From an uncultured Planctomycetota bacterium (GTDB lineage Bacteria > Planctomycetota > Planctomycetia > Pirellulales > Lacipirellulaceae), in NCBI GenBank assembly GCA_963719315.1, contig CAVRBU010000004.1, positions 352,001 through 416,000 of the forward strand: a DNA stretch of 64,000 bases. The letters run 5' to 3'. Shown here one piece after another: positions 19,282 to 37,157 of the stretch; the first letter of the stretch is position 1; each line of letters starts with the position of its first letter. Below the pieces are notes generated by a model, which saw nothing but the letters and a program-made list of their open reading frames with translations, made no database searches and had not been told where the DNA came from. The position numbers were made by a program, and so were the translations under genes.

Positions 19282-20343
19282 TTAACGTGCCGCGGAAGGT
19301 CTCGCCGTCGAGTTACGAACAATAAGTTCCGCGGGAACCTTAATCGTGGTCGGCGCATCATCATCGGCAATGATGCCATCGATGCGATCCGTGATGAGTT
19401 TGGCCGCAAGTCGGCCAATTTCGTAAGGTTTTTGACGCATTGTCGTGAGTGGCGGACTCATCGTGTCCGCGAAGTCGAGATCCGCGAACCCGAGAATCGA
19501 AATGTTGCTGGGGATCTTCATTCCCAGTTCACTGGCGACCTGGTAGACAAAGGTCGCCTCATGGTCAGAGACCGCAAAGACGGCAGTCGGACGCAGATCG
19601 TCGCCCAGCAACTCGCGCACTACTTCGAGGCCGTTGCTGCCTTGCGCGTTTAGATGCCAGCTCTTCACTTTGGCATCAGTGCAACGTCGCACCGCCTGTT
19701 CGAACGAGCTACGGCGTTTTATCGCCCAAGTTTGCGAAGGCGTTTCGCGGCTGGAGAGACAAGCGATCCGACGATGCCCGAGATTGAGCAGGTGTTCGGC
19801 AATGGCAAACGTCGCCTGTTCCTCGTCCGTTTCTACCGAGTCGGCCACGGACGAATAATGGTCGATTACGGCAACTGGTACGCGGCGTTCGACGAATTCG
19901 GGGAAGTGGTGGTAATAGGCCACGCTGAACGGCGGCCACATGATGAGCCCATCCACGCGGCGGTCCAATAGCCGATTGATCTGCCGCAGGCCTTCTCCTT
20001 CTTCCTTTTCAAAATGCGGCATGTCGCCGAGATTGCCAATCCAGACAGTAATCGGCAGGTAGTCGCATTCCGCGAGTGCGTCGTGAATGCCGGAGAGCAC
20101 GCTCACCCAAAATGAGTCGAAGGGCGGAATCATCACGCCGATCGTCTGGGTCCGGCCCGTTTGCATGCCGTTGACCAACAAGTTTCGACGCCAACCCAAT
20201 TGACGTGAGGCCTCCAAAACGCGGCGACAGGTTTCTTCGCCAAAGCGTTCGCGGTCGCCACGCAGGATACGAGAAGCGGCGGCCAGCGAGACATTGGCCG
20301 CTTTGGCCACGTCTTTCAATCGCGGGACTTGCGAAGTAGCCAT
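19282..20343 (-). CDS. LacI-family transcriptional regulator
   Basis: RLKDVAKAANVSLAAASRIL HTH; HLLNLGHRRIA; PTAVFAVSD; ISILGFAD..SPPLTTMRQ; divergent from the GH130 operon. Confidence 0.93.
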   Translation of the reverse strand: MATSQVPRLKDVAKAANVSLAAASRILRGDRERFGEETCRRVLEASRQLGWRRNLLVNGMQTGRTQTIGVMIPPFDSFWVSVLSGIHDALAECDYLPITVWIGNLGDMPHFEKEEGEGLRQINRLLDRRVDGLIMWPPFSVAYYHHFPEFVERRVPVAVIDHYSSVADSVETDEEQATFAIAEHLLNLGHRRIACLSSRETPSQTWAIKRRSSFEQAVRRCTDAKVKSWHLNAQGSNGLEVVRELLGDDLRPTAVFAVSDHEATFVYQVASELGMKIPSNISILGFADLDFADTMSPPLTTMRQKPYEIGRLAAKLITDRIDGIIADDDAPTTIKVPAELIVRNSTARPSAAR

Positions 20344-20455
20344 TTTTGTCCACACGGAGTCGAGCGTCGCACAGTAGGCCAATGATGCTCACGACGGTCG
20401 GAGAGCAGTCGGTGAGTGGCTCTTTGGTGGTCGTAGACACCCGCGGACCGACTGG

Positions 20456-20469
20456 GTAAACTAGTTTAC
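20456..20469. promoter_or_regulatory. Probable LacI-type operator
   Basis: Perfect palindrome GTAAACTAGTTTAC, extendable to actggg..cccagt, between the divergent regulator and GH130 genes. Confidence 0.65.
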
Positions 20470-20556
20470 ACCCAGTGTTCATTATTCTCTGCCCCGAACC
20501 GATGTCAATTGGACGTGCGGTTTCTACGGACAGAGTCCTGTCCAAAGTCGTAATCC

Positions 20557-21618
20557 ATGAAGAGTGACGTGAAATCGCGGGTGCGCTTGGAGACAGGGCG
20601 TACTGGAGAGGGCGCCAATGGCGTGTCGGCCTCATCCAAGCAAGGCCTCGTTGCGATTCCCTGGCAAGAACGCCCGCCCCTCTCGACGGATGTTGTTTGG
20701 CGGTACTCCGCCAACCCGATCATTGGCCGACATCACATGCCCGGCGTGCAGGGTGTGTACAACAGCGCGGTCGCTCCCTATGGCGACGGGTATGTTGGCG
20801 TTTTCCGTTTGGAAAAGCGTTCCCGATTTCCTCATCTTCACATTGGCTGGAGTGAGGACGGAATCGATTGGAACATCGAGTCAGAACCGATCGAGTTCGC
20901 CAAAGGCGATTCCGGCTCGCCGGCCGATTACGCCTATGATCCGCGTTTGTGCAAGATCGACGGCACGTACTACATCACCTGGTGCGGCGGGCACAACGGG
21001 CCCACGATCAGCGTAGCCGCGACGCGCGATTTTCGATCCTTCGAGCGACTGGAAAATGCATTTCTGCCGTTCAATCGCAATGGCGTGCTATTTCCACGGA
21101 AAATCGGCGGCAAGTTCATGATGCTGAGCCGACCGAGCGATGACGGCCATACTCCGTTTGGCGACATCTATTTGAGTCAAAGCCCAGACATGTGCCATTG
21201 GGGCATGCATCGTTTGGTGATGCGGCGAGGCGGCTGCGACGTTGGACAGTGGTGGCAGCGGACCAAGGTCGGCGCCGGTCCCATCCCAATCGAAACAGCC
21301 GACGGCTGGCTCATGATTTATCACGGCGTGATGGACACTTGCAATGGATTCGTCTACAGCATGGGGGCCGCACTATTGAATCTCGACGAGCCGTGGCGCG
21401 TGCTGTATCGCACGAATCAGCACATTTTAACGCCGGAGGCCGATTACGAAGTGTCAGGCCACGTGCCGAATGTCGTTTTCCCGTGTGCGGCGTTACACGA
21501 TGCGGCGGCCGATCGCCTGGCCATTTATTATGGTGCGGCCGACACTTCGTGCTGTCTGGCTTACGCCCACCTGGGTGAATTGGTCGCATTCGTCAAAGAG
21601 AACTCGCAGGTGTTCTAG
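20557..21618 (+). CDS. GH130 glycoside phosphorylase (beta-1,4-mannooligosaccharide phosphorylase-like)
   Basis: IPWQERP..VVWRYSANPII, YNSAV, YDPR, NAFLPFNRNGVLFP, LSRPSDDGHTPFGDI, KVGAGP, YHGV, VPNVVFP, YYGAADT. Confidence 0.9.
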   Translation: MKSDVKSRVRLETGRTGEGANGVSASSKQGLVAIPWQERPPLSTDVVWRYSANPIIGRHHMPGVQGVYNSAVAPYGDGYVGVFRLEKRSRFPHLHIGWSEDGIDWNIESEPIEFAKGDSGSPADYAYDPRLCKIDGTYYITWCGGHNGPTISVAATRDFRSFERLENAFLPFNRNGVLFPRKIGGKFMMLSRPSDDGHTPFGDIYLSQSPDMCHWGMHRLVMRRGGCDVGQWWQRTKVGAGPIPIETADGWLMIYHGVMDTCNGFVYSMGAALLNLDEPWRVLYRTNQHILTPEADYEVSGHVPNVVFPCAALHDAAADRLAIYYGAADTSCCLAYAHLGELVAFVKENSQVF

Positions 21619-21665
21619 CGACGGAGAGATTCGCTTCTCATCGTGGGCCGCGGGGAGTTCAGAGC

Positions 21666-23516
21666 GTGAACTTAACGAGACTCGACCTGGCGATTATTGC
21701 GATTTACTTCGCGGTCACACTTCTTGCGGGTTTTTGGATTTCGCGGCGAGCCTCACGCAGCCTGCGCAATTATTTTCTCGGCGGCAACGCCGTGCCGTGG
21801 TACGCGCTGGGGCTTTCGAATGCCTCCGGCATGTTCGATGTGAGCGGCACCATGCTGATGGTCGCGTGGATGTTTGTCTACGGGCTCAAAAGCGTCTGGC
21901 TGCCGTGGATGTGGCCGGTTTTCAATCAGGTGTTCATGATGGTCTTCCTTTCTACCTGGCTCCGCAGGTCGGGAGTAATGACCGGCGCCGAATGGATCCG
22001 CTTTCGATTCGGCGATGGCCCTGGTGCACATTTGTCGCATCTGATTGTCGTAATGTATGCGATGCTGATAGTGATTGGCTTTTTGGCGTACGGCTTTGTC
22101 GGGATCGGAAAATTCGCGGCCACCATGCTCCCCTGGCATCTCGCCGCCGATTCTTACGTCAACGACAACTTGTACGGTCTGATTATTACGGCGATTACGA
22201 CAATTTATGTCGTCAAGGGGGGCATGCTGAGCGTCGTATTCACGGAGGTCCTTCAATTCTTCGTGATGACGGTCGCTTGCGTGTGGATCGGCATTATAGC
22301 GATCGAGCGCGTGTCGCCCGAACTGCTGGCCACGAAGGTGCCGGCCGGCTGGGACAGCATTTTTTTTGGCCGCACTCTCGATCTCAACTGGAGTGGCATA
22401 TTCGAGGCGGCCAATGCACAGATAAAGGCGGACAAGTGGGAATATTTTTCCGCGTTTTGGGTCATCTTGCTGGTCAAAGGCTGGCTGCAAAGCATGGCCG
22501 GGCCGCGGCCGGACTACGACATGCAGCGAGTGCTTTCGGCTCGCACGCCTAGCGAGGCGGCCAAAATGAGCTGTCTAGTCAACATTGTCTTGCTGATTCC
22601 CCGTTACATGCTGATTACGGGCCTCACGGTGCTCGCCCTCGCGTTTTTCACCGACCAGTTGACGCCGCGCGACGGTGCGGTGGACTTTGAAAAAATCCTG
22701 CCGCTGGTGATGCGCGAGTTCGTGCGGCCGGGTTTGCTCGGGCTAATGATCGCGGCACTATTGGCGGCGTTCATGTCCACGTATGCCGCGACCGTAAACG
22801 CCGCGCCCGCGTACATCGTAAACGATATTTACAAGCGCTATCTCAACCCGAACGCACCCGAGAAAACATATATTCGCATGAGCTATGCGACGTCGATCAT
22901 CGTGGTGTTGATCGGTACGGCGTTCGGGTTCGCTTCGACGTCGCTCAACAGTATCGTGGAATGGATCGTGACCGCCCTCTACGGCGGTTATACCGCGTCC
23001 AACGTATTAAAATGGTACTGGTGGCGATTCAACAGTTATGGTTACTTCGGCGGTATGGTGACCGGCCTCGTGGCGATGGCGATCGTACCTCATTTCTTCC
23101 CGAAACTGGCGGTGATTTACAATTTCCCACTGATATTAGCCATTTCGCTGGTCGGTTGCGTCGCGGTCAGCCTGCTGACGCCGCCCGACGACGTTGACGT
23201 ACTCAAACAATTCTATCTCCAAGTGCGACCTTGGGGCTTCTGGCGGCCGATTCATGACTTGCTTGTCGCCGAAAATCCTCGGGTTGAGGCAAACAAGGCG
23301 TTCGGCCGCGATATGATCAATGTAGTGATCGGGATTGTCTGGCAAACGGCGCTCACGACGACCGGCATCTATCTTGTAACTCAAGATCACTACCGCTTGA
23401 TGTGGTCGCTCGTCCTGGTGGCGATCACTTCGGCATGGTTGAAATTCAACTGGTATAACAAGCTGGAAGAATACCCCAGCGGCTTTACGCCGGTTGGAGC
23501 ACAGGCGGAAGTCTAA
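21666..23516 (+). CDS. Sodium:solute symporter family sugar transporter
   Basis: Many TM helices; YFLGG..PWYALGLSNASGMFD, GGMLSVVFTEVLQF, MQRVLSAR, AAFMST, VNDIYKRY, LKWYWWRFN, VRPWGFW. Confidence 0.9.
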   Translation: MNLTRLDLAIIAIYFAVTLLAGFWISRRASRSLRNYFLGGNAVPWYALGLSNASGMFDVSGTMLMVAWMFVYGLKSVWLPWMWPVFNQVFMMVFLSTWLRRSGVMTGAEWIRFRFGDGPGAHLSHLIVVMYAMLIVIGFLAYGFVGIGKFAATMLPWHLAADSYVNDNLYGLIITAITTIYVVKGGMLSVVFTEVLQFFVMTVACVWIGIIAIERVSPELLATKVPAGWDSIFFGRTLDLNWSGIFEAANAQIKADKWEYFSAFWVILLVKGWLQSMAGPRPDYDMQRVLSARTPSEAAKMSCLVNIVLLIPRYMLITGLTVLALAFFTDQLTPRDGAVDFEKILPLVMREFVRPGLLGLMIAALLAAFMSTYAATVNAAPAYIVNDIYKRYLNPNAPEKTYIRMSYATSIIVVLIGTAFGFASTSLNSIVEWIVTALYGGYTASNVLKWYWWRFNSYGYFGGMVTGLVAMAIVPHFFPKLAVIYNFPLILAISLVGCVAVSLLTPPDDVDVLKQFYLQVRPWGFWRPIHDLLVAENPRVEANKAFGRDMINVVIGIVWQTALTTTGIYLVTQDHYRLMWSLVLVAITSAWLKFNWYNKLEEYPSGFTPVGAQAEV

Positions 23517-23527: not shown

Positions 23528-26500
23528 ATGTCCAGGCATTGTTTTGCCGTTGTTTTCCTGTTGTTCGGCGGCGTCTGGTGTGCAGCGCAGCCCCAAGCTG
23601 GCGCAAGCCAACTTTATTACTCGCCGGGGCGACAAACTTTTCGACGGGAAGCGCGAGTTTCGCTTCATCTCGTTCAACATTCCGAACTTGATGGTCATCG
23701 AAGACGCGTACGAATTCACCAAGCCCAATCCGTGGCGCTGGCCGGATGAATTTGAGATCGAAGACGCTCTCGAATCGGTCCGTCAGATGGGCGGCCAGGT
23801 CGTGCGAACGTATGTCCTAAGCGTGTACCGGGAAGGCTCCGACATGGGCGAGTGCGTGCATGTGCGAAGGCCGGGCGAATTCAATGAGGAAGGGTTTCGC
23901 GCGCTCGACAAAGTGATTGATGTCGCCCGGCGAAAAGGAATTCGCGTCATTATTCCGTTTGTCGATCAAGCCAAGTGGTGGGGCGGTATCGGCGAATACG
24001 CGGCGTTCCGCGGTAAGCCGGCCGACGCTTTTTGGAGCGATCCACAGGTCATCGACGATTTCAAGGCGACGGTACGTTACTTGCTGACCCGCAAAAATAC
24101 GTACACCGGCGTCGAGTACCGCGATGAGCCGGCCATTTTCGGTTGGGAGACCGGTAATGAAATTGACGCGACGCCGTCATGGACGCGGGAAATCGCGGCT
24201 TACATTAAGCAACTCGATCCGAAGCATCTCGTCATCGACGGCAAATCGCTGAAAGGCGTTCCGCAAACTTCGCTGGACGATCCGAACATCGACGTGATTA
24301 CAACGCACCACTATCCGTGGGGCGACGACCATGATTTCGTCAAGCCTATTCGGGCGGCCCACGCTCTCACGAAAGGCAAGAAGGCGTATTTCGTGGGCGA
24401 ATTCGGGTTCGTCGAAACGCCGCATATCGCCAGCGCAATTCAAACGGTGATCGACGACGGGATTTCAGGCGCACTGCTGTGGAGCCTGCGAATGCATCGT
24501 CGCGAAAGCGGCTTCTATTGGCACATGGAAGTCGGCACGGGTCGGAATATTTATAAGGCGTTTCATTGGCCAGGATTTGCCTCCGGCGACCGCTACGATG
24601 AGCGGACCCTTATGCCCCTCATGCGCGATAAGGCGTATGAGATTCGTGGGCTACAACCACCGCCCCTTGAGCGACCGGCGCCGCCAAGGCTATTGGCGAT
24701 CGAATCCGCGAGCGCAATATCGTGGCAAGGGTCGGCCGGCGCGGCCGGTTACGATGTATGGCGTGCCGCGACTGCGAAAGGGCCTTGGATCAAGATCGCG
24801 GAAAACGTATCCGATGCCGGCGTGCAGTATCGGCCGCTATTTCACGATGTCGGCGTGGCGCCTGGCCAGCACTATTGGTACCGCGTCGTTGCCCGCAACT
24901 CGGCGGGCGAATCGGAGCCTTCCAACATTAGGGGCCCGGTTTCCGTCGATTGTAGAGCCTTCGTGGATGAGTGCCGCGATCTTGCGCTAACGGCATCGAC
25001 GGAAGGCAACGTTACGCCAGTGAGCGAGAATGCGCGAACCGTGCAGGAAGATTGCCATCGGCTGGCTCTCCGGCCCGGATCGGCCGTCACCTATCACGTC
25101 GAAAAGCCGATCAGTCGTTGGCGCATTTATGCCTTTGCGTCCGACGAGTCGACTCTGGCGATTGAAACATCCGCGGATGGTAGGAGTTTCCAATCCGCCA
25201 AGGTCGAGCGCAAGGCATTTCCCTCGAGCCAAACGATCTATGGCTATTCAACGCCTATCCTGTTCAGCGGAAATGGCGACGGCGGAAACTTCACGTATTT
25301 GCGAATTGCACTCCGCGAGGCGCCTGCTGAAGAGAAACACAAGAACGACAGGCGGCCGACGAACGAACGCAAGCCGGCGACCGTCGAGATCTCGCGCGTT
25401 GAAATCGAGTTCGATCGCGAGGCAAATCCTGCGCCTGCGCCTGATCCTGAAGTGAAAAGAGCCGCTCAGCTCAATTCATCGATTTTTATCGACGGTCGGC
25501 CGCTGAACGACACGCTGGCCACCATCGATGCGGCCGCCGCGCGCGGCGAGCGGCGCCTCAATGTCGTGGTGACGATCCTCGTGGATTTGACGGAGGATCT
25601 GCGAATCAAAAGTTTTGGCAGCTTTTCCGGTTCGCGGCTCGCCTATAAACCCTTCGACGACGCGATGCGCGATGAACTGAAGGGCAAGCTCCAACAGGTT
25701 TTCGCGCACATGGTGAAGCATGGCATGGATATTTCCATTCTCCCGCACATCGATGCGGGTGGTCATGTGCGCCAGTGGCGCAATTGGGTCGATTTTGACC
25801 CGCTCGAATCATACAGCGGCTACACCTACGACGACTTGATGATCGGCACGATCGTTAACGCGCTCGCCAAGACTGCCAATGACGGATCCGATATCGAGTT
25901 GGCCCTTTCGGGCGAGATGGGTACCAGCCTGTTTCTATATCCGGAGTCTTATCGAACCATAGTTCGTCGACTGCGCGAGCGACCGGAGCTAAAGAGACTG
26001 AAAATCGGCATCAGCCTGAACCACGGCGGCATTGCGGGTCGGGGCAATCCCACGGGAGCCAAAGAAGTTCGCTTATCGGACGCTATGCGGCAGCAAATGC
26101 AATTGCTGATTGAGGAATGTGATTTCATCGGCATGTCGTTCTACGCTCCGGTCAGCGTCGCGCCGACGCCTGATGACTTCGTCCGCGGCATTGAACGGTT
26201 CATGAGTGAATTCCAACAGTACGGATTGTCGGTGCCGACCACCAAGCCGATGCAATTCTCGGAAGTCGGTATCGGTGGCCGACGGGCGAGGGGCGTTGCC
26301 GTCGATCCAGCCAAAGCGGTCGAGACGCCGTGGGAAGGAACGGCGAATCCGCGTGAAAATCCCTGGGGACAACCGTCAATGCAACAGCTTCGCCGCCAAT
26401 ATCACGGCGCACTCCTTCGTTTCCTAGCCGAGCAGCCTGCCAGGTGGCGGGTTTCAGGCGCATTCTTGTGGAGTATGGGTTCGTGGGATCCGCTGGGACA

Positions 26501-26621
26501 CGGCCAGCCAGAATTCGCCGATCCTGAGATTATGGCTGCGATTGAAATGCAGAACAGGGCTAAAGCGGTGAACCCCCCCCTCCTCCCCCCCCCCCGAAAG
26601 ACGGGAGCTACCTCTCCTTGA
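23528..26621 (+). CDS. Multidomain GH5 beta-mannanase-like enzyme (GH5 + Fn3 + second putative TIM-barrel domain); frameshift between signal peptide and catalytic domain near 23600
   Basis: Signal peptide MSRHCFAVVFLLFGGVWCAA in the 23528 frame; 23544 frame has FISFNIPNL, WWGG, WETGNE (acid/base), THHY, VGEFG (nucleophile), LLWSLR; Fn3 YWYRVVARNSAGESEPS. Confidence 0.8.
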
Positions 26622-26946
26622 GCGTGCGGGAATCGCTGTACCTGTCAATACGGTACGGGAACATTCTGCAGAATTTTTCTTGCGAGCTGTTACAGAATGA
26701 TGGACAATGTAATTTGGCTCAGTTAGATTATGTTCAAGTAGTTGAGCAGTGGAGGCTGGTCCACTGGTTCCCAATTCTTTTTCGTACAAATTCGAGTCGG
26801 TTGGAAGTGGAATTCTTTTTTAGCGTGCGCGGCCAACGCCCTTCGTGCGTTCCGTGCCTCAATCGAGAACGAGCGCGAATACGCTTCGTTGTAAACGTTA
26901 GCAATCGATCACGGCCTTGTAATTTCACAATGGTGGAGGAGCTCTA

Positions 26947-28143
26947 ATGAAGTCGCGTCATTGGTTGGTTATTTCTCTTGCGCTGGCATGCCTTGTGGTT
27001 TGTACGCAGGCGCAAGCGCAGTCACCGAGCGTGTTGTACACATTTGATAACACCGGCAACGCGGTGCCAAACATTGAGGCCTGGATTCGCAGTTTTGGGG
27101 CCGGTAGCACTTCTGCCACACTGGACAATAACATTGTTGGCTCCCTGACCCTTACGGAAACCAGCACTGCATTGGGCGGGAGTCAAGCATTTAGCGATGG
27201 CTTTAATCGAGTGCGTGAATCTTCAACAGGCGCCAGCGGCGGCCTCGATTTGACCGGTTTGGATTTCCTCGAATGGGACCTTGGGCATAACGGCGTCGGC
27301 AACGTCAACGTGCAGTTTTACGTACAGGCTACAACCGCGAGTACATACGTCGCGCTCGGGCCGGATCTTGCAGTTGCACCAGGCATCAGTACGTACCAAG
27401 TGCCCCTTACCGGATTGACGCCAAGTCAGTTGGTTTATGTTCGCACACTGGGCATCAACATTCGCGACCATGCGGCCGAAGGAAACTTGATTTGGAACAT
27501 CAACGAAGTGAGGTCTGGCGGCACGCCGCTGACTGTGCGTGACTTGGGCACCTTTGATAATGGGACGGCGGAAGGTGGCTTGCAAGGCATGATCGCCAAC
27601 TTCGACGTGGGTTCGATTGTCGGCAACGATGGCGGGCAAAACCAGACTGGTTTGTCGCACAATGCGGCCGGCAGCGGTTCACTGCAGTGGACCGATGCGG
27701 CCGGCGGCGCCGGCGGCGCCGTTAGCATGGGCAACGGAACTGCCTGGAACGGCAATACGTTCAACAACCGGACGACGGATCTGTCGAACTATCAAACGAT
27801 GCACGTGCGAATCAGCGCCACGGAAACCACGACCAGCAATGGTGGCTCAGTCAACGTGCAGCCTTTCATGCAGGTGAACAATTTTGGTTCATTCCTGTCG
27901 CTTGCAACGCAGGCGCTGCCGATTGACGGACAATTCCATGACCTCTATTTTTCGATGCCGATCAATGCGTTTTTGAACGTGGTTGATCAAACGGGTTTGA
28001 ACTTGGGTAGCCACACCGACGAACTCACGATCAATGTGGACTTGATTCAGTTGGTCGTGCCGGAACCAGCGTCGATGACTCTGATTGGGGTCGCCTTAAT
28101 TGGTTGCTGGGGCCTGGTCGGCCGGTCCCGACGTGGTCAATGA
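26947..28143 (+). CDS. PEP-CTERM protein with two tandem CBM-like beta-sandwich domains
   Basis: ggagga RBS, signal peptide ending AQAQ, VPEPASMTLIGVALIGCWGLVGRSRR; internal duplication (GSLTLTE..LDLTGL..VNVQFY / GSLQWTD..DLSNY..VNVQPF). Confidence 0.85.
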   Translation: MKSRHWLVISLALACLVVCTQAQAQSPSVLYTFDNTGNAVPNIEAWIRSFGAGSTSATLDNNIVGSLTLTETSTALGGSQAFSDGFNRVRESSTGASGGLDLTGLDFLEWDLGHNGVGNVNVQFYVQATTASTYVALGPDLAVAPGISTYQVPLTGLTPSQLVYVRTLGINIRDHAAEGNLIWNINEVRSGGTPLTVRDLGTFDNGTAEGGLQGMIANFDVGSIVGNDGGQNQTGLSHNAAGSGSLQWTDAAGGAGGAVSMGNGTAWNGNTFNNRTTDLSNYQTMHVRISATETTTSNGGSVNVQPFMQVNNFGSFLSLATQALPIDGQFHDLYFSMPINAFLNVVDQTGLNLGSHTDELTINVDLIQLVVPEPASMTLIGVALIGCWGLVGRSRRGQ

Positions 28144-28335: not shown

Positions 28336-29784
28336 ATGTGGCGGTTGCATTTCACGTTGGCAACGGCGGGTTGCTTAGTAAGCTGCGGCATTGCTGCGGC
28401 CCAGTCGCCTGGAGTCCTTTATACCTGGCCAGGGACGGGGGATACGGCGGCGTGGGCTACGAGCGGCACCAATCTGTCGACGCTTGCTAATTCGACTGCA
28501 GGGCAATTGACGGTTACGGAAATGGGAGACGAACTCGACCCAATGATCGTGGGCGGTCCGCTTGTGATTCGTGACGGATTCAATCGACGGCTGGAAAGCT
28601 CCATAGCGCAAGGCGGCCTGGATGTAACCGGCTTGAGTGCGATCGAGATCGATCTTCAGCATAGCGGCGCGGGAACGGTGGACGTGCAATTCTTTCTACA
28701 GGCCACGCCCGCCTTCAATTATCTGTGGGCGGGTAGCAATGGCGCGCTCAGCGGTCCTGATTGGGCGATCGGACCAGGCGTACAAACGCTGACTTTTCCG
28801 CTCGGTCTACTCTCATCCGCGCAGCAGGCGTACATCCGTACGGTCGGTTTGAGCGTTCGCAATCACGCCGCTTTAGGAAACTTGACGTGGGATATACTCG
28901 ACGTGCGTACGATCGGACCTTCTGCGTCCTCGCGCATTCTGGCGTCGCACGATGCCGGCTCACCCGAAAACGGCCTGAACGGGGCCATCGCCAATTTCGA
29001 TCAGGCTGCGATTGTAGGCAATGACGGTGGCCAAAACCAATCGGGTTTGTCGCAAGTTACTAATGGTAGCGTCGGTTCGCTTCAGTGGACCGACAAAGGC
29101 AACGCTGGCAACACTGCCAACCCAAGCGGCGCCGCCCTAAGCTGGGGCAATGGACAACCGTGGGATGGCAATACGTTTAACGACCGATTGAGCGATTTTT
29201 CGAATTACGGCACGGTCACGTTCCGCGTCTCTGCCACGGATGCGCTCAATGCGGGCGGCTTGCTCGGTGTCCAAGCCTGGTTTCAAACCGGCGAATACAA
29301 CACGGCAGAAGCCTTGTTTCAGACGACATCCGGAAATGGCGTCGGAGCGAGTGGCGAAATAAATCTTCCGATCGACGGGCAATATCACGATCTCGTGTTC
29401 CCCTTGAGCGCGGTAACGAACCGACTGAACGTTCAGCAATTCGGGTTGAACCTGTTTGCTCACACAAATGACCTCGTGATTAACGTCGACTTTATTCAGT
29501 TTGACGAAGTGGTTGGGGTGCCGGGCGATTACAACGGCAATGGCGTAGTGGACGCGGCCGACTACGTGCTTTGGCGCAATGGCGGCCCGCTGCAAAACGA
29601 AGTGGATACACCGGGTACAGTCAATGCGGCCGACTACACGGAATGGTGCGCCCGGTTCGGCAACACGAGCGGCAGCGGCAGTCTAGTCGGTAGTGCAGTA
29701 CCGGAACCGGCCTGGGCAGTGCTGATGTTGGCAGCGGCTATTGGATATTTTACTTCGAGATGCAAAAGAATTGAAAACCTGTAA
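28336..29784 (+). CDS. Paralogous PEP-CTERM protein with tandem CBM-like domains plus dockerin-like module
   Basis: Shares QSPxVLYT, GGLDxTGL, IVGNDGGQNQxGLS, GNTFNxR, LPIDGQxHDL with the upstream gene; GDYNGNGVVDAADYVLWR; VPEPAW. Confidence 0.85.
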   Translation: MWRLHFTLATAGCLVSCGIAAAQSPGVLYTWPGTGDTAAWATSGTNLSTLANSTAGQLTVTEMGDELDPMIVGGPLVIRDGFNRRLESSIAQGGLDVTGLSAIEIDLQHSGAGTVDVQFFLQATPAFNYLWAGSNGALSGPDWAIGPGVQTLTFPLGLLSSAQQAYIRTVGLSVRNHAALGNLTWDILDVRTIGPSASSRILASHDAGSPENGLNGAIANFDQAAIVGNDGGQNQSGLSQVTNGSVGSLQWTDKGNAGNTANPSGAALSWGNGQPWDGNTFNDRLSDFSNYGTVTFRVSATDALNAGGLLGVQAWFQTGEYNTAEALFQTTSGNGVGASGEINLPIDGQYHDLVFPLSAVTNRLNVQQFGLNLFAHTNDLVINVDFIQFDEVVGVPGDYNGNGVVDAADYVLWRNGGPLQNEVDTPGTVNAADYTEWCARFGNTSGSGSLVGSAVPEPAWAVLMLAAAIGYFTSRCKRIENL

Positions 29785-30022
29785 GCGGCGTTTTCGTTCA
29801 GCACAAGCGAGATTGAGTAGAGATCGCCAAACTGAAAGTGCTGAATCATCGCCGGGGGTTTGTCGGCTTTTCCCGACCGGCATATAATGCACGGTGTGGC
29901 GGCCAGGCGCGAGTTCTTTTGGAGAATACCGGCTAGCAAAAAGCAACCAGGATTCTTATCATTTGCTAAAGTGCTTTAACAAGAGAAAATCGGTACTGGT
30001 AGAGCAGGCGGAGGAACGTGAA

Positions 30023-31123
30023 ATGTTGACCTCGTCTCGTCGGCGTTCGAGCAGCGGTTTCACGTTGGTCGAATTACTCGTTGTCATTGCCATCATCGGC
30101 ATCCTGGTGGCGTTGTTGCTACCGGCGGTCCAGGCGGTGCGCGAGTCGGCACGTCGAGCGCAATGCACGAACAATCTGAAGAATATAGCGCTGGCCGTGC
30201 ATAACTATCACGATGCGCACAAAGAACTTCCAGCCGCCGCCTGGCTGCGGCCCCAAACGACCCCCAGCGACAGTATCCTGACGGATAACCGTCTCTTCTG
30301 GAATTGGGCGATTCGAATTCTGCCTTATCTGGAAGAGCAGAGTTTGTTGGACCAGTTCACGATTAACAATACGACGCCGATCAGCAAGGATACAGGCACG
30401 AATAATAAAGCGGCGCGCGGAACTGAAGTTTCGGTAATGCTTTGTCCCAGTGATATCGGGCGCGGTAATCCCTTCCAGGGCACAAACGGTAATTGGGCAA
30501 GAGGTAATTACGGTTACAACGCGATTGAATTCTGGCCAAATGAGTGGTGGAAGCTATTCTCGAGCGATGCCAAGTACGCACCCTATTTCAAGTACAATCT
30601 CGGCATGGGTGGCATCGAAGACGGGGTCGAGAGACAAGTCCTGAGCTTGGCAAAAATCACTGATGGTACGACGAAGACCGTTATGTTGGCTGAGCTGCGG
30701 GTGGGATTGAGTGAACGGGATCGGCGCGGGGTGTGGGCGATGGGAATGTGCGCCTCGAACTTGCATTGCCGCCATGCCGCCAGCAGCATCAATGGTTGTT
30801 TCGAGGATGATGACGTTTTGGGGAGTGCCGATATTATTGCCGATGTTGGAATGTCAAATTTGCGGGCTGAATGTATGCTGCCCGCCGTAGGCTTGGAGTT
30901 AAGCGGCCAATCGATAGTACGCAGCCGACATCCGGGCGGCGCTAATTGTGCCATGGCAGATGCCAGTGTCCGTTTCATGAGCGACTTTATCGATCAGGGA
31001 AACCTACGCATCGGTGGCTATATCGGTGATGGAGGACCGAGCGACATCGACCCGCAGAACTTTCGCATCTGGCAGCGATTGTTGGTTTCGCGCGACGATC
31101 TTCCAGTGGATGACAATTTCTAG
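30023..31123 (+). CDS. DUF1559 (SBP_bac_10) prepilin-type protein
   Basis: GFTLVELLVVIAIIGILVALLLPAVQAVRESARRAQCTNNLK; ILPYLEE; CPSD; ITDGTTKT..AE; RSRHPGGANCAMADASV (H-X9-DG-like). Confidence 0.93.
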   Translation: MLTSSRRRSSSGFTLVELLVVIAIIGILVALLLPAVQAVRESARRAQCTNNLKNIALAVHNYHDAHKELPAAAWLRPQTTPSDSILTDNRLFWNWAIRILPYLEEQSLLDQFTINNTTPISKDTGTNNKAARGTEVSVMLCPSDIGRGNPFQGTNGNWARGNYGYNAIEFWPNEWWKLFSSDAKYAPYFKYNLGMGGIEDGVERQVLSLAKITDGTTKTVMLAELRVGLSERDRRGVWAMGMCASNLHCRHAASSINGCFEDDDVLGSADIIADVGMSNLRAECMLPAVGLELSGQSIVRSRHPGGANCAMADASVRFMSDFIDQGNLRIGGYIGDGGPSDIDPQNFRIWQRLLVSRDDLPVDDNF

Positions 31124-31146
31124 ATCAAACTTTGTCTGGTCCGCAA

Positions 31147-31623
31147 ATGATTTGCCTCCGTCGCGTTACAAGTGGTCGCCGACCAGCTTGGATAACACCA
31201 AGCGTGTGTGGTCTGTTGTCGCTGTTGGCATGCGGATTTGTTGCCGGATGCGGTTCGAACAGTCCCTATGCCTATCAGAAAGTTAGCGGAAAAATCACGT
31301 ATGAGGATGGTTCACCCATCTCCGGCAGTGGCTTGATACTACGCTTTGCCGCCCAAGACGCGCCTAAGTTAGAGAGTGCCGTTCCCCGGCCCGCATTTGC
31401 AAGAACCAACGCGCAGGGAGAGTTCGAGTGTGTCACAAGTTATAAGTTTGGCGACGGATTGATCCCAGGCAAGCATAAGGTAGCGATCGAACCGCAAGGC
31501 TCTCTGGACGCCGCCCCGGCTGTGCCCAAGGAATATCGCTCCATTTCTACAACGACGCTTGTGATCGACACTGCCGACTCGCCGCTGGAGATCAAGGTGC
31601 CGAAGCCTAAGGCTAAGCGGTGA
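31147..31623 (+). CDS. Small lipoprotein of the type that follows DUF1559 genes (carboxypeptidase-regulatory-like fold)
   Basis: Lipobox VAGC; VSGKITYEDGSP; TNAQGEF; DGLIPGKHKVAI; VPKEY. Confidence 0.8.
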   Translation: MICLRRVTSGRRPAWITPSVCGLLSLLACGFVAGCGSNSPYAYQKVSGKITYEDGSPISGSGLILRFAAQDAPKLESAVPRPAFARTNAQGEFECVTSYKFGDGLIPGKHKVAIEPQGSLDAAPAVPKEYRSISTTTLVIDTADSPLEIKVPKPKAKR

Positions 31624-31626
31624 ACG

Positions 31627-33138
31627 ATGACGCGAGCCTTTGCGATTCTGTGCTTCGCGGTCTTTGCAGCGGGCGTCGGTGGCATATTGCCGCGGGCCGT
31701 GGCCAACCCGGCCGTGTATGAAATCGGCAGCGATCCGGCCGTCGGGTTCAACCTCATCTCGTGGTTCAACTTCGGCTCCAGCGGCGTTTCGACATGGCAG
31801 AACGCGGTGCAGGGCCTGTACGACGCCGGATTTCGCAGCGTTTCGATCAGCCCGGTGCGCTTCGTGAATATCAATACGGGGCAGATTCTGACCACATCGC
31901 CCAAGGGGCCCGAGCTGAGCCACATCGACGCCGCCGTCGCCCGCGCAAAGTCGCTCGGCATGCGGGTGACGCTCAATCCGTTCGTGGAGCTGTTCGATGC
32001 GCACGGCCCCGGCACGGGCGACGATGAATACTTTGCAGATTTGCCGGGCGGCTGCACCTGGCGCGGCTGTTGGAATCCGACCGCCGGCAGCGCGGTTTCG
32101 AATCAGTTTTGGAGCGATTACCAGAGCTATATGGTCGCTGTCGCCGGGATCGCCGCCACGTACAACGTCGATGCAATGACCGTGGGCACCGAGTACAAGG
32201 CGCTCGACGGCAACAGTGCGCATAACGGGAGCTGGAATACGTTGATTAGCGCCGTCAATGGAGTGTATTCGGGGCCGCTCGGTTATGCAGCCAACTGGGA
32301 CGACTACAGCAACAACAATGTGAAAACAGCGATTTGGGATAATCCGGCGATCGACTTCATCGGCATTGATTCGTATTTCAAGAATTTGGCTACCACCGCG
32401 CAAGCCGACGCCTCGGGCGCGTATCCGAATGCGACGTTCATCAACACCATGACGGCGGCCTGGAACAATAAGCTCAACAATGAGATTCTGCCCTATGCTG
32501 CCGCGCGTAAGGGTGGCGCTGGAATGCCGGTCGCGTTTACCGAAGTCGGCTACCTTCCCTACAACCGCACCACGGTTAATCCGCAAAACAGCAGTGGCCA
32601 GGCGGTGGATACGGACGAGCAGAAAATGGCGTTCAATGGCTTGATCAACGCGCTCGATGGCCGAGGGGATAAATTCCCGGCGATGGATATCTGGCAGTGG
32701 GGTATGTCCGGCTCAGACGGGAGCCTGTGGAATATGGATACGACGGTGCCGGCGAATCAACCCAACAATGTCCCGGCGGCGCAATGGCTGGCTAGCTTTG
32801 TTGCCACGGGGATACTCCCGTTGGCCGGTGAATATAACCGCGACGGCGTGGTCGACGCGGCCGACTACGTCTTATGGCGTAAAAACAGCGGTAAGAATGT
32901 CCTCCAATACAGCGGGGCCGATGGCGATGGCAGCGGCATCGTGGACCTCGTCGACTACAACGTGTGGCGCGCACATCTCGGCGCCGGGAGCGGCGTTGGC
33001 GCGGCCGTCGCGGTCCCAGAACACGCGACAATGTGGCTGATTTTGAGCGCGACACTCATCGCCGGTGGGTGTCGTGGTCGTCGATTCGTCAAATGCGGAT
33101 CGCTCTCTACTGCTTTCGATCTTAATCGTGCAGATTGA
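31627..33138 (+). CDS. GH113-family beta-mannanase-like enzyme with dockerin-like module and PEP-CTERM-like anchor (VPEH)
   Basis: MRVTLNPFV, WRG, TVGTEY, YAANWD, DFIGIDSYF, FTEVGY; GEYNRDGVVDAADYVLWRK..ADGDGSGIVD. Confidence 0.8.
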   Translation: MTRAFAILCFAVFAAGVGGILPRAVANPAVYEIGSDPAVGFNLISWFNFGSSGVSTWQNAVQGLYDAGFRSVSISPVRFVNINTGQILTTSPKGPELSHIDAAVARAKSLGMRVTLNPFVELFDAHGPGTGDDEYFADLPGGCTWRGCWNPTAGSAVSNQFWSDYQSYMVAVAGIAATYNVDAMTVGTEYKALDGNSAHNGSWNTLISAVNGVYSGPLGYAANWDDYSNNNVKTAIWDNPAIDFIGIDSYFKNLATTAQADASGAYPNATFINTMTAAWNNKLNNEILPYAAARKGGAGMPVAFTEVGYLPYNRTTVNPQNSSGQAVDTDEQKMAFNGLINALDGRGDKFPAMDIWQWGMSGSDGSLWNMDTTVPANQPNNVPAAQWLASFVATGILPLAGEYNRDGVVDAADYVLWRKNSGKNVLQYSGADGDGSGIVDLVDYNVWRAHLGAGSGVGAAVAVPEHATMWLILSATLIAGGCRGRRFVKCGSLSTAFDLNRAD

Positions 33139-33190: not shown

Positions 33191-34988
33191 GTGAAATTCG
33201 TTGTTGTGGTTATTCTTGGACTGCTTGTCGCTACGCCTGTGATTGCGCAGGTGTATCGCTACGAGGCGGAGGACGGCCAACTGTTTGGTGGCCTCGTCCG
33301 TAGTTCGTCCGTCCCCGGTTATCAAGGCACCGGCTTCGTCACGAATTTCACCAACACCAGCGACTACTTTCTAACCAGCGCCACCGTGCCGAGCGGCCTG
33401 TACGAGTTGTGGGTCGGCTATCGGTCGCAGTTCGGTCAGAAAGGCTACAAGTACCGGGTCGGCAACGAATACGGCAGCGGCATGTTCGATCAGTCAACGA
33501 CCTTCACCACCGATCGAGCCGGGCTGTTCAACATCACTGCTCCCACCACAACGCTCGGAATCTATAAAGATTGGGGTTACCACGACGTCGACTATCTGGA
33601 GCTGCGACCATTCACGCCGCCCGCCGTGCTTCCCATTGCCCCGCAACTGACCGACGCGTCGGCGAACGAGCGCACGCAGCAGCTCATGAACTACATGACC
33701 AGCATCTACGGCCAGAAAACGCTCTCCGGTCATCAACACGATAGCAGCAAGAACCTGCCGTTTCCCAGTTCCACCTACCTCAATCTCTCGGGCGGATTGA
33801 AGCCCGCGATTCGCGCCTCCGACTTCATCGAGTACTCGCCAACGCGCATCGCCAACGGCTCGAATCCGAACAACGAATCGGAACAATCAATCGCCTGGGC
33901 TAAACAAAACAACGGCATCATCAGCATGAGCTGGCATTGGAACGCACCGGCGAATCTGGTGAACACGCCGTGCGGCAGCAATTGCGGCGCGAATGACTAT
34001 CCTTGGTGGCGCGGCTTCTACACCCAAGGCACGACCTTTGACCTGCCCGGCGCTCGCCAATCCAGCCGGCTCCGACTATCAACTCTTGCTCCGCGACATC
34101 GACGCCATCGGCGTGCAGCTCAAAAAGTTTCAAGATGCCGGCGTTCCCGTCATCTGGCGACCGTTGCACGAAGCCCAAGGCAGTTGGTTCTGGTGGGGCG
34201 CTCACGGCCCCGACACGTTCAAACAACTCTGGCGGCTAACCTACGATCGGCTCACCAACCACGACGGAATCCACAATCTGATCTGGGAGTTCACCTCTTC
34301 GGCCGCCGAAGGCAACTTCCAAGCCTGGTATCCGGGCGACGATGTGGTCGACATGATCGGCCTCGATATCTACACCGACCCCACCAGCAGCATGAGCGGC
34401 CAGTGGTACGACGTGCTCAATGAGTACAACGGCCGCAAAATGATTGCCCTGTCCGAATCGGGCACGCTTCCCAATGCGACCTCGATGAGCACGTTCAACA
34501 TCGACTGGAGTTACTTTTCGATGTGGCAGGACGGCTTCTTGGACGACTTCACTGCTCAACAAGTCCAAGCTCTGCTCAACAGCGATAGAATCATCACGCT
34601 GGACGAACTGCCCACGTTGCCCTGGAGCAATTCCGCATTCATCGCCGGCGACTTCAATCGCGATGGCACGGTGAACGCGGCCGATTACATCGTGTGGCGC
34701 AACTCGAACGGCCAAACCGGCTCCGGCCTCGCCGCCGACGGTGACCTCAACGGCCAAATCGACAACGCCGACTACGCCCTCTGGCGTTCCCACTTCGGCC
34801 CAACCGCCGGCAGCGGTACTGGAACCAGTCCTGCCGCCATACCCGAACCCGCCATTTTCCTCTTGCTCATCGTAGGGGTGAGTATCTCATTAGTTGGTGA
34901 CATTAGACTGCGGTCTGGTACCAAAAGGCTTCCCACTGACCAAGCTGGCCGAGGTATAGGGCGCGGAGGTAGTAGAGGCTGGCGCTGA
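33191..34988 (+). CDS. GH26 beta-mannanase with N-terminal CBM35-like domain, dockerin-like module and PEP-CTERM; frameshift near 34050
   Basis: RYEAEDG, SWHWNAP, WWRGFYT (33065 frame); VIWRPLHEAQGSWFWWG, HNLIW, WYPGDDVVDMIGLDIY, IALSESG, WSYFSMW, IPEP (33993 frame). Confidence 0.85.
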
Positions 34989-35277
34989 CGGGCTCTCGCC
35001 AGCGCATGCCGCTGCCTTTGAGGCGTCCGCCCACGACCTGCTTGCCAGCGGCTTCCACCGGGCCGGAGCCAAGCATCCACCCGCGAGCCAAGTACCTGGG
35101 AACAACGGCTCCGCCGCCGCTTCCTCTTCCGCAGTGAGTTCCTGATCCAACGCGTTGTTCTGCTTGGCCAACGATCCGATCTCCTTTCAGCAAGTTCGAG
35201 AATTGCCCCGCTTGTCACTACTTCTCCAGCAGAGTTGATTTTCCTCCCGGAATCGAGACGTTCACCATACGACACCC
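34876..35277 (-). mobile_element. Internally deleted ISKra4-family element (402 bp) with transposase C-terminal remnant
   Basis: Minus-strand RYLARGWMLGSGPVEAAGKQVVGGRLKGSGMRW..LRALYL..WEAFW; ends GGGTG..CACCC; flanks tcgtag / tcgaag. Confidence 0.7.
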
Positions 35278-35376
35278 TCGAAGGGGTGTCGCGTCTTGCC
35301 TTTCTGCCCGCGGCGCGATTACGCTAAGCATTACCGGAACGATTCGGGCCGGAAGGAAACAGAGGGGATTTTCTAG

Positions 35377-36024
35377 ATGAATATGGTTTTCGCGACGACG
35401 ATTAACGACATCGCCAAACACTTGGGCGATGCCTGTTACGCATTTCTGGCTCTTAACTTTTTGTGGGGCCTCTATAATGTAATCATGGGCTTCCGCCGCG
35501 TGCGCGAGCTGGACTTTGGAGGGCATGAGGAGCAGGCCGAATACGTGGATGAAGTTGTCCAGGATTTACAATCCGGAAACTATCGCGCGATCGAAGAACT
35601 CACGAACGACGATCCCCGCGCATTGCCGCAGCTTATCGAGCTGGCGGTAGCAAATCGCCAACTTAGTTACGATCAGATGCGGCAAGTCGTGATGGAGATT
35701 TTGCAGCGCGATGTGATGGGCGACCTCGAATACCGCACGAACTGGATCGCGACCTCGATCAAGTGCGGGCCGCTGCTCGGGCTGTTCGGCACGGTGCTGG
35801 GCATGATGGCGGCATTCGGCCGCATCGGCACCGGCGAGAAAGTCGAGCCGTCGATGATCGCGGCCGAAATCAGCATCGCGTTGATTTGCACGGCGATGGG
35901 GCTCGGTACGGCTATTCCGTTTAATTTCCTGCTGGCTAGCCTGACGACCAAAATCCGGAACCTGCAGGATGCGCTAGGCGCCGGGCTGATGCGGGTGCTG
36001 GATTTCTTTAAACCTCGCGGATAA
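35377..36024 (+). CDS. exbB: MotA/TolQ/ExbB proton channel protein
   Basis: GPLLGLFGTVLGMMAAFG, ISIALICTAMGLGTAIP. Confidence 0.85.
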   Translation: MNMVFATTINDIAKHLGDACYAFLALNFLWGLYNVIMGFRRVRELDFGGHEEQAEYVDEVVQDLQSGNYRAIEELTNDDPRALPQLIELAVANRQLSYDQMRQVVMEILQRDVMGDLEYRTNWIATSIKCGPLLGLFGTVLGMMAAFGRIGTGEKVEPSMIAAEISIALICTAMGLGTAIPFNFLLASLTTKIRNLQDALGAGLMRVLDFFKPRG

Positions 36025-36039
36025 CTGGGGAAACGTCCC

Positions 36040-36522
36040 ATGGATTCCTCCGTCTTCGGCCTCGGATCGACCGGCGCCGACGAATTGATGGCGCGTCGCC
36101 CCGATCATGAACCGCCCGAGTTCGATATCACGGCGATGGTCGATCTGGTGTTCATGATGAACATCTACTTTCTTGTGACGTTTGTGACCGTGGCGATGGG
36201 CGGGCTGAACCTGCCGTCGGCAACGCACGTCGCCGCGCTCGATGGAGATACGGCCGTCATCCTCTCCCTCGTGCGGAGCCTCGATGGAAAGTCGGTGTCG
36301 GTCTACCTGGGCGACGGCACCGAAAGCGAAGCGATCAACGATCCGGCTCAGCAAGAACAGCGAATTCAAGCGGCGGTCGAGCAAGGCCTTGCGGAGGGCA
36401 AGAAGGCCGTGCTGCTCAAGGCGGAAAAGAAGGTGCGGCTGGCGGACTTGTTTCGCGTGGCGACGGCCGCGACCGTGGAAGGTGTAAAGCTCCACGTGGC
36501 CGTGCTGGAGAAGGACAAGTGA
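36040..36522 (+). CDS. exbD: ExbD/TolR biopolymer transport protein
   Basis: FDITAMVDLVFMMNIYFLV, LNLPSA, VLLKAEK. Confidence 0.85.
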   Translation: MDSSVFGLGSTGADELMARRPDHEPPEFDITAMVDLVFMMNIYFLVTFVTVAMGGLNLPSATHVAALDGDTAVILSLVRSLDGKSVSVYLGDGTESEAINDPAQQEQRIQAAVEQGLAEGKKAVLLKAEKKVRLADLFRVATAATVEGVKLHVAVLEKDK

Positions 36523-37157
36523 CAAAGATCACCTTCGCATGTCGGTACTGCGGCAAGAAGCTGTCGGCGTCGGAGACGAGTGCCGGCCGGGAGAAGACGT
36601 GCCCTAACTGCCGTGCGCGGGTGGTAGTTCCGACGCCGGAAGCCGCGGCTCAAAAGACCGCGACGGGCGAGACGAAGCCCCGACAGGCCGCCGACCATCC
36701 AGTTCTGATGATGGGCCGCCGTCCGGAGCATAAAGACCTGATCGACATGACGGCGATGGTCGACATCGTATTCTTTTTGTTGATTTTCTTTCTGGTCACG
36801 TCGCTGCAGTCGATCGAGGCCGTGATTGATCTGCCGGCCCCGCAAATTCCGGCGAGCGCGCCCGATAGCGTGCAGGCGGTGCCCGATATCGCCAACGATC
36901 CGAATTACGTGGTTGTGACGATCGACGACAACGACGCGGTGGATGTCGACGGCGAGGAAGCGATTGGCGAGCAGGACCTGCGTGCGAAACTCCGCGCCGC
37001 GCACCAGGAACACGACAAGGATGGGATGATGATCAACGGCTCGGCCGATTCGACGCACGGCAAATTCGTGATGGTTCTCGATGCCGGGGCCAGCGCGGGA
37101 ATGACGCAGATCCTGTTCTCTGTGCCCCGCACCGACGAGGCGTCCACCGGGGGCTAA
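36519..37157 (+). CDS. exbD: Second ExbD/TolR protein with N-terminal Cys4 zinc ribbon
   Basis: CRYCGKK..CPNC; IDMTAMVDIVFFLLIFFLV; HGKFVMVLD. Confidence 0.85.
   Translation: MTKITFACRYCGKKLSASETSAGREKTCPNCRARVVVPTPEAAAQKTATGETKPRQAADHPVLMMGRRPEHKDLIDMTAMVDIVFFLLIFFLVTSLQSIEAVIDLPAPQIPASAPDSVQAVPDIANDPNYVVVTIDDNDAVDVDGEEAIGEQDLRAKLRAAHQEHDKDGMMINGSADSTHGKFVMVLDAGASAGMTQILFSVPRTDEASTGG

Follow-up and report, generated by a model that had tools for sequence, protein, structure and literature searches.

A predicted beta-mannan regulon of planctomycetes with a prepilin-like DUF1559 protein and without SusC and SusD

Results

Gene content of the mannan locus

We studied a window of 64,000 nucleotides (the whole stretch analysed, G000:C4:352001-416000) from the genome of an uncultured planctomycete of the family Lacipirellulaceae (5.93 Mb in 20 contigs, 90.7% complete). 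It holds a gene cluster predicted to serve the use of beta-mannan, in the centre of which lie four non-enzymatic genes: two for PEP-CTERM proteins (P5 and P6), one for a prepilin-like protein of the DUF1559 family, and one for a small lipoprotein. Profile searches gave the order divergent LacI, GH130, sodium:solute symporter, GH5, the two PEP-CTERM genes, DUF1559, lipoprotein, GH113, and CBM35-GH26; exbB-exbD-exbD follow, and manA lies further on, past tatC (Table 1). A preliminary description, made from the letters and their open reading frames, had listed the same genes, and their order, strands, and families were borne out by matches to Pfam-type profiles and structure databases. Its remark that the locus has no TonB receptor, SusD, or ABC transporter also stands, with 0 matches to these families among the locus proteins. 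The carbohydrate-active enzymes (CAZymes), the transporter, and the regulator for one glycan are co-localised, as in a polysaccharide utilisation locus (PUL).

The in silico evidence presented below supports well a real and conserved PUL-like regulon for beta-mannan (gluco- or galactomannan), with an undescribed module, that is not a SusC/SusD PUL. Judged by their sequences, the four central genes are very probably members of this regulon: the DUF1559 clade is linked to mannan genes, the module has the operator of the GH130 promoters, and P5 models as a carbohydrate-binding module (CBM). This agrees with their earlier assignment to the mannan system.

Table 1. Features of the mannan locus, with positions in the window
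Feature	Position	Strand	Details
LacI-family repressor, divergent	19282..20343	-	PF00356 + PF13377; frame open from 20382, ATG probably at 20343
Palindromic operator 1, between lacI and GH130, core TnAAnTAnTTnA	20454..20471	.	21.6 bits
GH130, beta-1,4-mannooligosaccharide phosphorylase type	20557..21618	+	PF04041; no signal peptide evident
Sodium:solute symporter	21666..23516	+	PF00474
Signal peptide, GH5 mannanase, Fn3-like region, and C-terminal GH113-like domain, without PEP-CTERM	23528..26621	+	
Palindromic operator 2, 5' of the PEP-CTERM/DUF1559 module	26731..26748	.	22.5 bits
P5, PEP-CTERM protein with signal peptide and two tandem CBM-like beta-sandwiches	26947..28143	+	
P6, PEP-CTERM paralogue of P5 with dockerin-like repeat ahead of the tail	28336..29784	+	
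Palindromic operator 3, 42 bases 5' of the DUF1559 ATG	29964..29981	.	18.3 bits
DUF1559 / H-X9-DG prepilin-like protein, mannan-linked clade	30023..31123	+	
Small lipoprotein, usual DUF1559 partner	31132..31623	+	Lipobox Cys at 31249 by reading of the sequence
Divergent GH113; has a dockerin-like repeat and ends in a PEP-CTERM-type tail	31627..33138	+	PF22612
CBM35-GH26 mannanase; has a dockerin-like repeat and ends in a PEP-CTERM tail	33191..34988	+	Frameshifted near 34050
exbB-exbD-exbD, adjoining but outside the regulon	35377..37157	+	

Mannan enzymes and symporter

The GH130 protein (PF04041, E 2.5e-68) is closest to TM1225 (4e-132), UhgbMP (9e-131), and the beta-1,4-mannooligosaccharide phosphorylase 5ayd (1e-112). 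Its match to mannosylglucose phosphorylase reaches only 4e-23, and the mannosylglucose or beta-1,2 enzymes are all at 1e-39 or weaker. We take the beta-1,4-mannooligosaccharide phosphorylases to be subfamily 2 of GH130. The symporter, which matches the SSF profile (E 2.1e-32), is presumed to import mannooligosaccharides. The best PDB matches of the GH5 domain are GH5 mannanases, and the same protein carries a second, GH113-like domain of catalytic type (window 25464-26573, + strand; Atlas 0.96 to the GH113 cluster) that Pfam missed; this long form occurs in 16 of the 36 members of the GH5 cluster. The stand-alone GH113 is divergent (PF22612, 57.9 bits against a cut-off of 27). PEP-CTERM-type tails are found in 27/29 members of the GH113 cluster, 18/22 of the GH26 cluster, and 0/36 of the GH5 cluster. 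Presumably, the catalytic glutamates lie in WETGNE and FVGEFG (GH5), GTEY and FTEVG (GH113), and PLHEA and LSESG (GH26). The genome has no match to the epimerase family PF07221. Apart from the one in the locus, GH130 genes occur at C4:728615, C4:732856, and C2:10004.

Linkage of a DUF1559 clade to mannan genes

The soluble part of the DUF1559 protein was used to query 120 genomes of the family. Matches at E 1e-30 were found in 83 of them (the genome under study counted), mostly with one strong match each. For the comparison of neighbourhoods, 40 of the 44 best matches (the other four, situated on short contigs or close to a contig end, were skipped) and 20 weaker ones were taken with up to 20 kb of surrounding DNA, and a mannan enzyme was called when identity was at least 40% over half the query. 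Such an enzyme lies beside DUF1559 in 36/40 close relatives and in 8/20 weaker ones. The preliminary description had proposed this co-occurrence as a test, and the lack of linkage that would have spoken against it was not seen. The close loci hold LacI (26 of the 40), GH130 (29), the symporter (28), GH5 (29), GH113 (23), GH26 (21), and the lipoprotein (34). Constant in their gene maps is a core in which DUF1559 and the lipoprotein gene stand with one or two PEP-CTERM genes. GH113 and/or GH26 usually follow, and the LacI-GH130-symporter-GH5 block stands in either orientation or has been relocated. Counted by genome, a mannan GH5 is present in 45/52 with a DUF1559 match below 1e-55, in 13/17 and 3/13 in the weaker bands, and in 4/37 without a match; with 19 candidates scored per genome, some may have been missed. 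A quick IQ-TREE reconstruction with 103 rows gave a 38-row clade (SH-aLRT 99) with 33 mannan-linked proteins, 5 unlinked ones, and none of the 39 paralogues from the genome itself.

Close DUF1559 relatives come from Lacipirellulaceae, Adhaeretor, Bythopirellula, Lacipirellula, and Botrimarina, and the cultured carriers include Adhaeretor mobilis, Lacipirellula limnantheis, Bythopirellula polymerisocia, and two Botrimarina species. No mannan genes were found beside distant DUF1559 matches in records from Gemmataceae, Anatilimnocola, and Thermoguttaceae. Outside the family, GH5 at E 1e-80 was found in only 1 of 400 sampled genomes of the phylum. Because the carriers are confined to one family and the enzyme is this rare beyond it, the locus may have a single origin.

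Some relatives carry additional modules. Two loci have a second, distant DUF1559 gene and a different small partner between symporter and GH5 (L070:3513-4622 and L071:4046-5062). In one genome, about 15 kb from the related locus L079, a second cassette of the clade with operator sites adjoins a GH5 cellulase and a GH3 (L031), which suggests a glucomannan arm of the mannan regulon. A sister branch of DUF1559 (L035, L040, L042, L044, L045, and L046) has another pair of PEP-CTERM proteins (about 230 and 800 amino acids) and the same operator.

A predicted operator shared by three promoters

Palindromic motif discovery in 28 regions upstream of GH130 genes yielded TnAAnTAnTTnA. Four sites in the whole genome score at least 18 bits, three of them within the mannan locus: the site before P5 is the best, the one before GH130, itself a training site, ranks second, and the one before DUF1559 is tied for third. 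A matrix built from 12 sites of other genera, themselves located with the first matrix, again places the P5 site first in the genome (29.1 bits), followed by the DUF1559 site; the GH130 site of the window is a genus-specific variant and scores below 11 bits. The three promoters of GH130-symporter-GH5, of P5-P6, and of DUF1559-lipoprotein-GH113-GH26 are, in silico, under the same predicted operator. The fourth strong site, C2:1812179, stands between a gene for an SppA-like peptidase (read from the sequence) and one for an unrelated protein. With these as the only neighbours of a strong site elsewhere, we rejected the idea of a co-regulated receptor outside the locus.

For the comparison with paralogues, sites near GH130 starts were removed, and sites of at least 16 bits were accepted up to 4.2 kb upstream. 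They precede DUF1559 in 36/40 close relatives, 8/20 weaker ones, and 0/46 paralogues of the genome itself, and lie directly before the gene in 10 of the 40. The operator is kept in loci (L076, L086, L089) that have their GH5 gene on a different contig or at a distance of 865 kb. Its position suggests that the divergent LacI is the protein that binds it. The centre of the operator is TA; LacI operators typically have CG there.

The DUF1559 protein and its lipoprotein

The protein is a full member of the DUF1559/SBP_bac_10 and H-X9-DG-CTERM family: it matches PF07596 at 166.3 bits (cut-off 23.3), N_methyl at 33.3 (21.2), and TIGR04294 at 38.9 (19). What sets it apart from the family at large is the link between one clade and a defined polysaccharide regulon, which has an operator of its own. 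It has a class III signal peptide (G12|F13-T-L-V-E17), a complete motif with conserved E5. The structural model (pLDDT, the predicted local confidence, 92.2) has an N-terminal helix of 52 residues (15-66) and a loop-rich head. Each of its 19 structural hits is a pilin or a pseudopilin, but the matches are weak (best Z 3.9, root-mean-square deviation [rmsd] 3.4, 119 residues aligned). A lectin or periplasmic-binding-protein fold was considered and set aside, none being among the listed structural matches; the model resembles a pilin whose head is unfamiliar, rather than a lectin. Several residues that the clade conserves (W158, W171, W350, R234, H248, R250, H251, and C243/C249/C259) are seldom found in 39 paralogues, which at sequence level suggests a clade-specific site.

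The lipoprotein, which accompanies DUF1559 in the 34 close loci noted above, belongs to clusters of planctomycete proteins without a name. The nearest named Atlas cluster is CarboxypepD_reg at 0.89, which serves as a lead only. Pilus-type machinery is encoded elsewhere in the genome, with 2 PilT over the cut-off and further ATPases of PilB/GspE type (PF00437 has 9 matches). Secretins account for 6 matches, and there are a prepilin peptidase and 1 exosortase.

The PEP-CTERM proteins P5 and P6

P5 and P6 are 47% identical. P5 exceeds the cut-off of PF07589, and the tails of P6, GH113, and GH26 were recognised by pattern. The hallmarks of PEP-CTERM/exosortase sorting are present: a C-terminal PEP motif, a hydrophobic segment, a basic tail, and one genome match to the exosortase family PF09721. 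About 230 of the 5248 called genes of the genome encode a PEP-CTERM-like tail, many with a dockerin-like repeat before it.

The model of P5 (pLDDT 85.7) consists of two beta-sandwiches. Its best structural match is a module of the alkaline mannanase 1wky (Z 16.0, rmsd 2.2, 136 residues aligned), followed by a xanthanase domain (Z 15.2), CBM27 (14.5 for 1pmj, 14.1 for 1of3), and cellulose/xylan modules (12-14). Foldseek ranks a tandem CBM22 at the top and has a Bacteroides surface glycan-binding protein among its matches. PF21253 is matched by 17 of the 29 members of the P5 family, P5 itself excepted. Modelling thus supports a CBM-like fold for P5; the fold result is for P5 alone, and P6 is known from the alignment. 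By these best matches, P5 is akin to the CBMs that accompany mannanases (CBM27, the module at the C-terminus of 1wky, PF21253). It differs from them in that it consists of stand-alone tandem modules with a PEP-CTERM tail, at 10-13% identity, for which mannan binding is predicted. That mannan would be its ligand is suggested by the genomic context.

Neighbours of the locus and the missing SusC and SusD

The preliminary description had listed exbBD and manA with the locus. The gene positions in relatives show them to be chance neighbours. As an energiser, exbB-exbD-exbD was rejected: the genes are in 0/40 and 0/20 related loci and without an operator (the genome scan has no site before exbB), and no TonB was found in the genome. 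In three relatives (G102, G103, G115), exbBD lies 1.3-1.8 Mb from the DUF1559 gene. We also rejected manA, which is single-copy in 42/42 genomes irrespective of the locus and lies 0.5-2.3 Mb away in well-assembled relatives; in one genome (G070), manA and exbB share a contig other than that of the mannan locus. In the exbB-exbD-exbD set (window 35377-37157), the second ExbD has an N-terminal CxxC..CxxC extension that resembles a zinc ribbon.

Searches of the 90.7% complete genome for the TonB receptor (PF00593), SusD (PF07980), and TonB (PF03544) gave 0 matches each. A TonB-dependent receptor encoded elsewhere, which the preliminary description had named as evidence that would count against it, was therefore not found in this assembly. 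Nor was a TonB receptor found in 43 of 64 family genomes that are at least 92% complete. Because both the genome and these relatives lack a detectable receptor, the gap where SusC and SusD would be is a trait of the lineage, genome-wide and largely family-wide, rather than the peculiarity of the mannan locus for which it had been taken.

DUF1559 cassettes across the genome

The genome has 61 matches to PF07596, which we merged into 56 loci and compared with 1000 control positions, using our own gene calls and a pattern for the PEP-CTERM tail. In the 3.5 kb upstream, 28/56 DUF1559 loci have a PEP-CTERM gene (103/1000 controls), and 42/56 have one within 5 kb (273/1000). The lipoprotein family lies within 2.5 kb of 24/56 (19/1000). 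Given this enrichment, the cassette is a repeated unit of the genome. DUF1559 genes have been described as scattered and flanked by genes for signal peptides (Seeger 2021, PMC8567305, in the part relevant here).

A wider survey covered 20 of the 56 loci, picked by hand and without a random control; we scanned 121 of 147 neighbours of at least 230 residues, from 18 loci. As a lead, it indicates that several cassettes sit in catabolic loci, and about six surveyed loci had nothing catabolic. One candidate beta-1,2-glucan locus (L092, G000:C5:65000-84999) has GH94, GH1, and PF10091 next to a DUF1559 gene that stands among PEP-CTERM genes. Another (L103, G000:C2:379001-393000) has a PEP-CTERM/lipoprotein/DUF1559 cassette in a cluster for nucleoside catabolism, with three PNP-family genes, a pyrimidine nucleoside phosphorylase, and DeoC. 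Other cassettes accompany GH18, a symporter, and ROK, a chitin-type set (L101); two BNR proteins, a symporter, and GntR (L091); GH39 (L096); a glycerophosphodiesterase and a transporter of the major facilitator superfamily (MFS) (L097); or sugar regulators and oxidoreductases (L102, L108).

Quality of the assembly and flanking genes

The assembly has frameshifts in the GH5 signal peptide (near 23600), in GH26 (near 34050), and in manA (near 40940). They are probably assembly errors, because one short-read contig has a 2-base insertion at the manA site and homologous GH26 genes run uninterrupted across the frameshift point. The short reads, from four soil metagenome runs of one study (one of them perhaps the sample of origin) with patchy coverage of the locus, neither confirm nor exclude the frameshifts in GH5 and GH26. 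Two large proteins of secreted type flank the locus and also appear frameshifted, one beta-propeller-like with PKD and CBM96 (window 15976-18811), the other a choice-of-anchor Q protein with a dockerin-like repeat (window 37343-39105). Further away (window 6858-9835), the gene calls include transposase-like open reading frames, downstream of which are an ECF-sigma-like gene and one for a Ser/Thr kinase that has WD-like repeats.

Discussion

How the locus may work

Knowledge of the families suggests how the regulon could operate. Sugars derived from mannan would relieve LacI at the shared operator. The envelope-anchored CBM pairs of P5 and P6 would hold mannan, the anchored GH26 and GH113 would cut it, and the unanchored GH5 would trim it. 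The symporter would import oligomers, and GH130 would phosphorolyse them to mannose-1-phosphate. In the most speculative step, DUF1559 would be processed by prepilin peptidase and become a mannan-specific minor subunit of a shared machine of the type IV pilus or type II secretion system (T2SS) type, the parts of which (PilB/GspE, PilT, secretins) would be supplied in trans; together with the lipoprotein, it would bind mannan or large oligomers and bring them to or through the outer membrane. We give this whole model, in which DUF1559 and the lipoprotein supply a shared pilus-type machine with its mannan-specific subunit, a probability of about 0.45.

A number of observations weigh against it. 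The 16-bit site is missing in 4/40 close relatives (L056, L088, and L090, with L057 lacking upstream DNA), and 4/40 have no neighbouring mannan enzyme, L090 being in both groups. The linkage counts are not independent events, because the genomes are kin. The ligand is not fixed by the fold of P5, since its CBM27-like Z-scores are only some 2-3 units from those of xanthanase, cellulose, and xylan modules. On which side PEP-CTERM proteins are exposed, surface or periplasm, is described as unsettled in the relevant part of PMC4960237, which deals with Akkermansia. The pilin match of the DUF1559 head is weak, with a Z that does not exceed 3.9 and, from Foldseek, which picks up the helix alone, no hit at E 0.001, and no lectin, carbohydrate-binding, or solute-binding fold is among its listed structural matches, where absence is not exclusion. 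DUF1559 stands beside PEP-CTERM genes genome-wide, as expected of an export adaptor. Finally, the locus has no outer-membrane pore, and since the genome has OprB and BBP2 porins, anchored endo-mannanases and porins could suffice.

The last two points lead to the main rival, in which DUF1559 and the lipoprotein would be a locus-specific pseudopilin set that recognises P5, P6, GH113, and GH26 and delivers them to the surface via a T2SS-like machine; mannan would then be bound and cut outside by the PEP-CTERM proteins and enter through porins. We regard it as rather unlikely. It fits the PEP-CTERM genes within 5 kb of three in four DUF1559 loci, the pseudopilin-like core without a lectin fold among the matches, the tails of GH113 and GH26, the porins, and one sister branch of the DUF1559 tree that is paired with partners of its own (clusters 11/12). 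A precedent for secretion of C-terminally sorted proteins by the T2SS is GlyGly-CTERM. For this, the relevant passages of PMC3237569 note co-occurrence with the T2SS only. Against delivery as the function, a PEP-CTERM gene is missing from the 5 kb around 14/56 DUF1559 loci, and the DUF1559 clade stays constant while the families of its upstream partners change (the P5 family matches cluster 8 at 14.7% probability and cluster 11 at 1.9%). This turnover counts only weakly, because most directly upstream partners form one related group (clusters 8, 11, 13, and 24).

It is also conceivable, if improbable, that DUF1559 never forms a fibre and is held in the inner membrane by its N-terminal helix as a periplasm-facing protein that, together with the lipoprotein, binds mannooligosaccharides or relays them to the symporter or GH5, with entry by porins. 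The class III cleavage motif, complete and with conserved E5, speaks against this, as does a model without a periplasmic-binding-protein fold. Such motifs mainly serve filament assembly. The idea draws on the lack of an assembly gene in the locus, on cassettes beside small-molecule pathways (nucleoside phosphorylases/DeoC in L103, glycerophosphodiesterase/MFS in L097), and on two reports consulted for these points: Tuwongella proteins with both domains were in detergent-soluble membrane fractions (PMC8567305), and the family was formerly labelled solute-binding (PMC2754498, one of two older mentions). Least probable by far is a generic adhesin or passenger, a cassette inserted once in the mannan operon of the family ancestor and co-inherited without a mannan-specific role. 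Carriers from a single family (GH5 at E 1e-80 being all but absent outside it) and the frequency of the cassette in the genome would suit it, but dedicated operators survive inversions and physical splitting of the locus, P5 has a CBM fold of mannanase type, and clade-positive and GH5-positive genomes largely coincide.

Relation to known systems

The beta-mannan loci of Bacteroidota combine a regulator, GH5/GH26, GH130, a symporter, and envelope glycan-binding proteins in a co-regulated cluster. The planctomycete locus is like these SusC/SusD loci in its regulator, GH5/GH26, GH130, inner-membrane symporter, and predicted envelope glycan binders. It is unlike them in that SusC, SusD, and TonB were found neither in the locus nor in the genome, that no PF07221 epimerase was matched, that binders and enzymes have PEP-CTERM tails, and that a prepilin-like gene and a lipoprotein stand in its centre.

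The capture model is close to the 'fishing rod' hypothesis, in which pilin-like proteins would catch polysaccharide and draw it into the periplasm (Boedeker 2017, PMC5394234; review PMC12078418); pili-like planctomycete fibres bind dextran (PMC5394234). The passages of these papers that set out the hypothesis name no genes, whereas the mannan locus offers a candidate subunit and a ligand. In another PVC (Planctomycetes, Verrucomicrobia, Chlamydiae) bacterium, Akkermansia, the MUL2 mucin locus, as outlined in Wilkie 2026 (PMC13174399), encodes a four-gene machinery with a PilM-like MUL2B and an archaeal-pilin-like MUL2A. Both cases link parts resembling type IV pilins to glycan use; unlike in MUL2, the subunit here is rich in paralogues and lies inside a CAZyme operon, with the machinery in trans. 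No PilM-type Pfam hit is found among the locus proteins, a search made without the MUL2 proteins as queries.

Within the scope of our literature search, from which subscription papers largely fell out, no paper linked DUF1559 to glycan loci or to a regulon. CAZyme clusters of planctomycetes are called uncharacterised in a passage of PMC11131199; fucoidan loci have since been studied, and the T2SS was up-regulated in one strain, according to the pertinent part of PMC11685898. Names of the DUF1559 family gave no match in the searchable supplements of these two papers, two proteomics spreadsheets of the latter not being covered.

Implications

How planctomycetes take up polysaccharides without SusC and SusD is an open question, and the mechanisms and players are called unknown in the relevant passage of PMC12673574. 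Among the families of the phylum that still lack an explanation, DUF1559 is one of the largest. Tentatively, its members could be ligand-specific, interchangeable subunits of a pilus-driven machine for nutrient capture and import, a PVC counterpart of SusC/SusD. If so, each of the dozens of paralogues in a genome would be induced with its own catabolic locus (for beta-mannan, beta-glucan, chitin, glycerophosphodiester, or nucleoside) and plugged into shared PilB/PilT/secretin machinery. P5 and P6, for their part, may represent a new family of mannan-binding modules. The mannan locus ties one DUF1559 paralogue to a defined sugar and offers, besides cultured carriers and a predicted operator, a cheap presumed inducer in the form of locust bean gum, konjac, or ivory-nut mannan.

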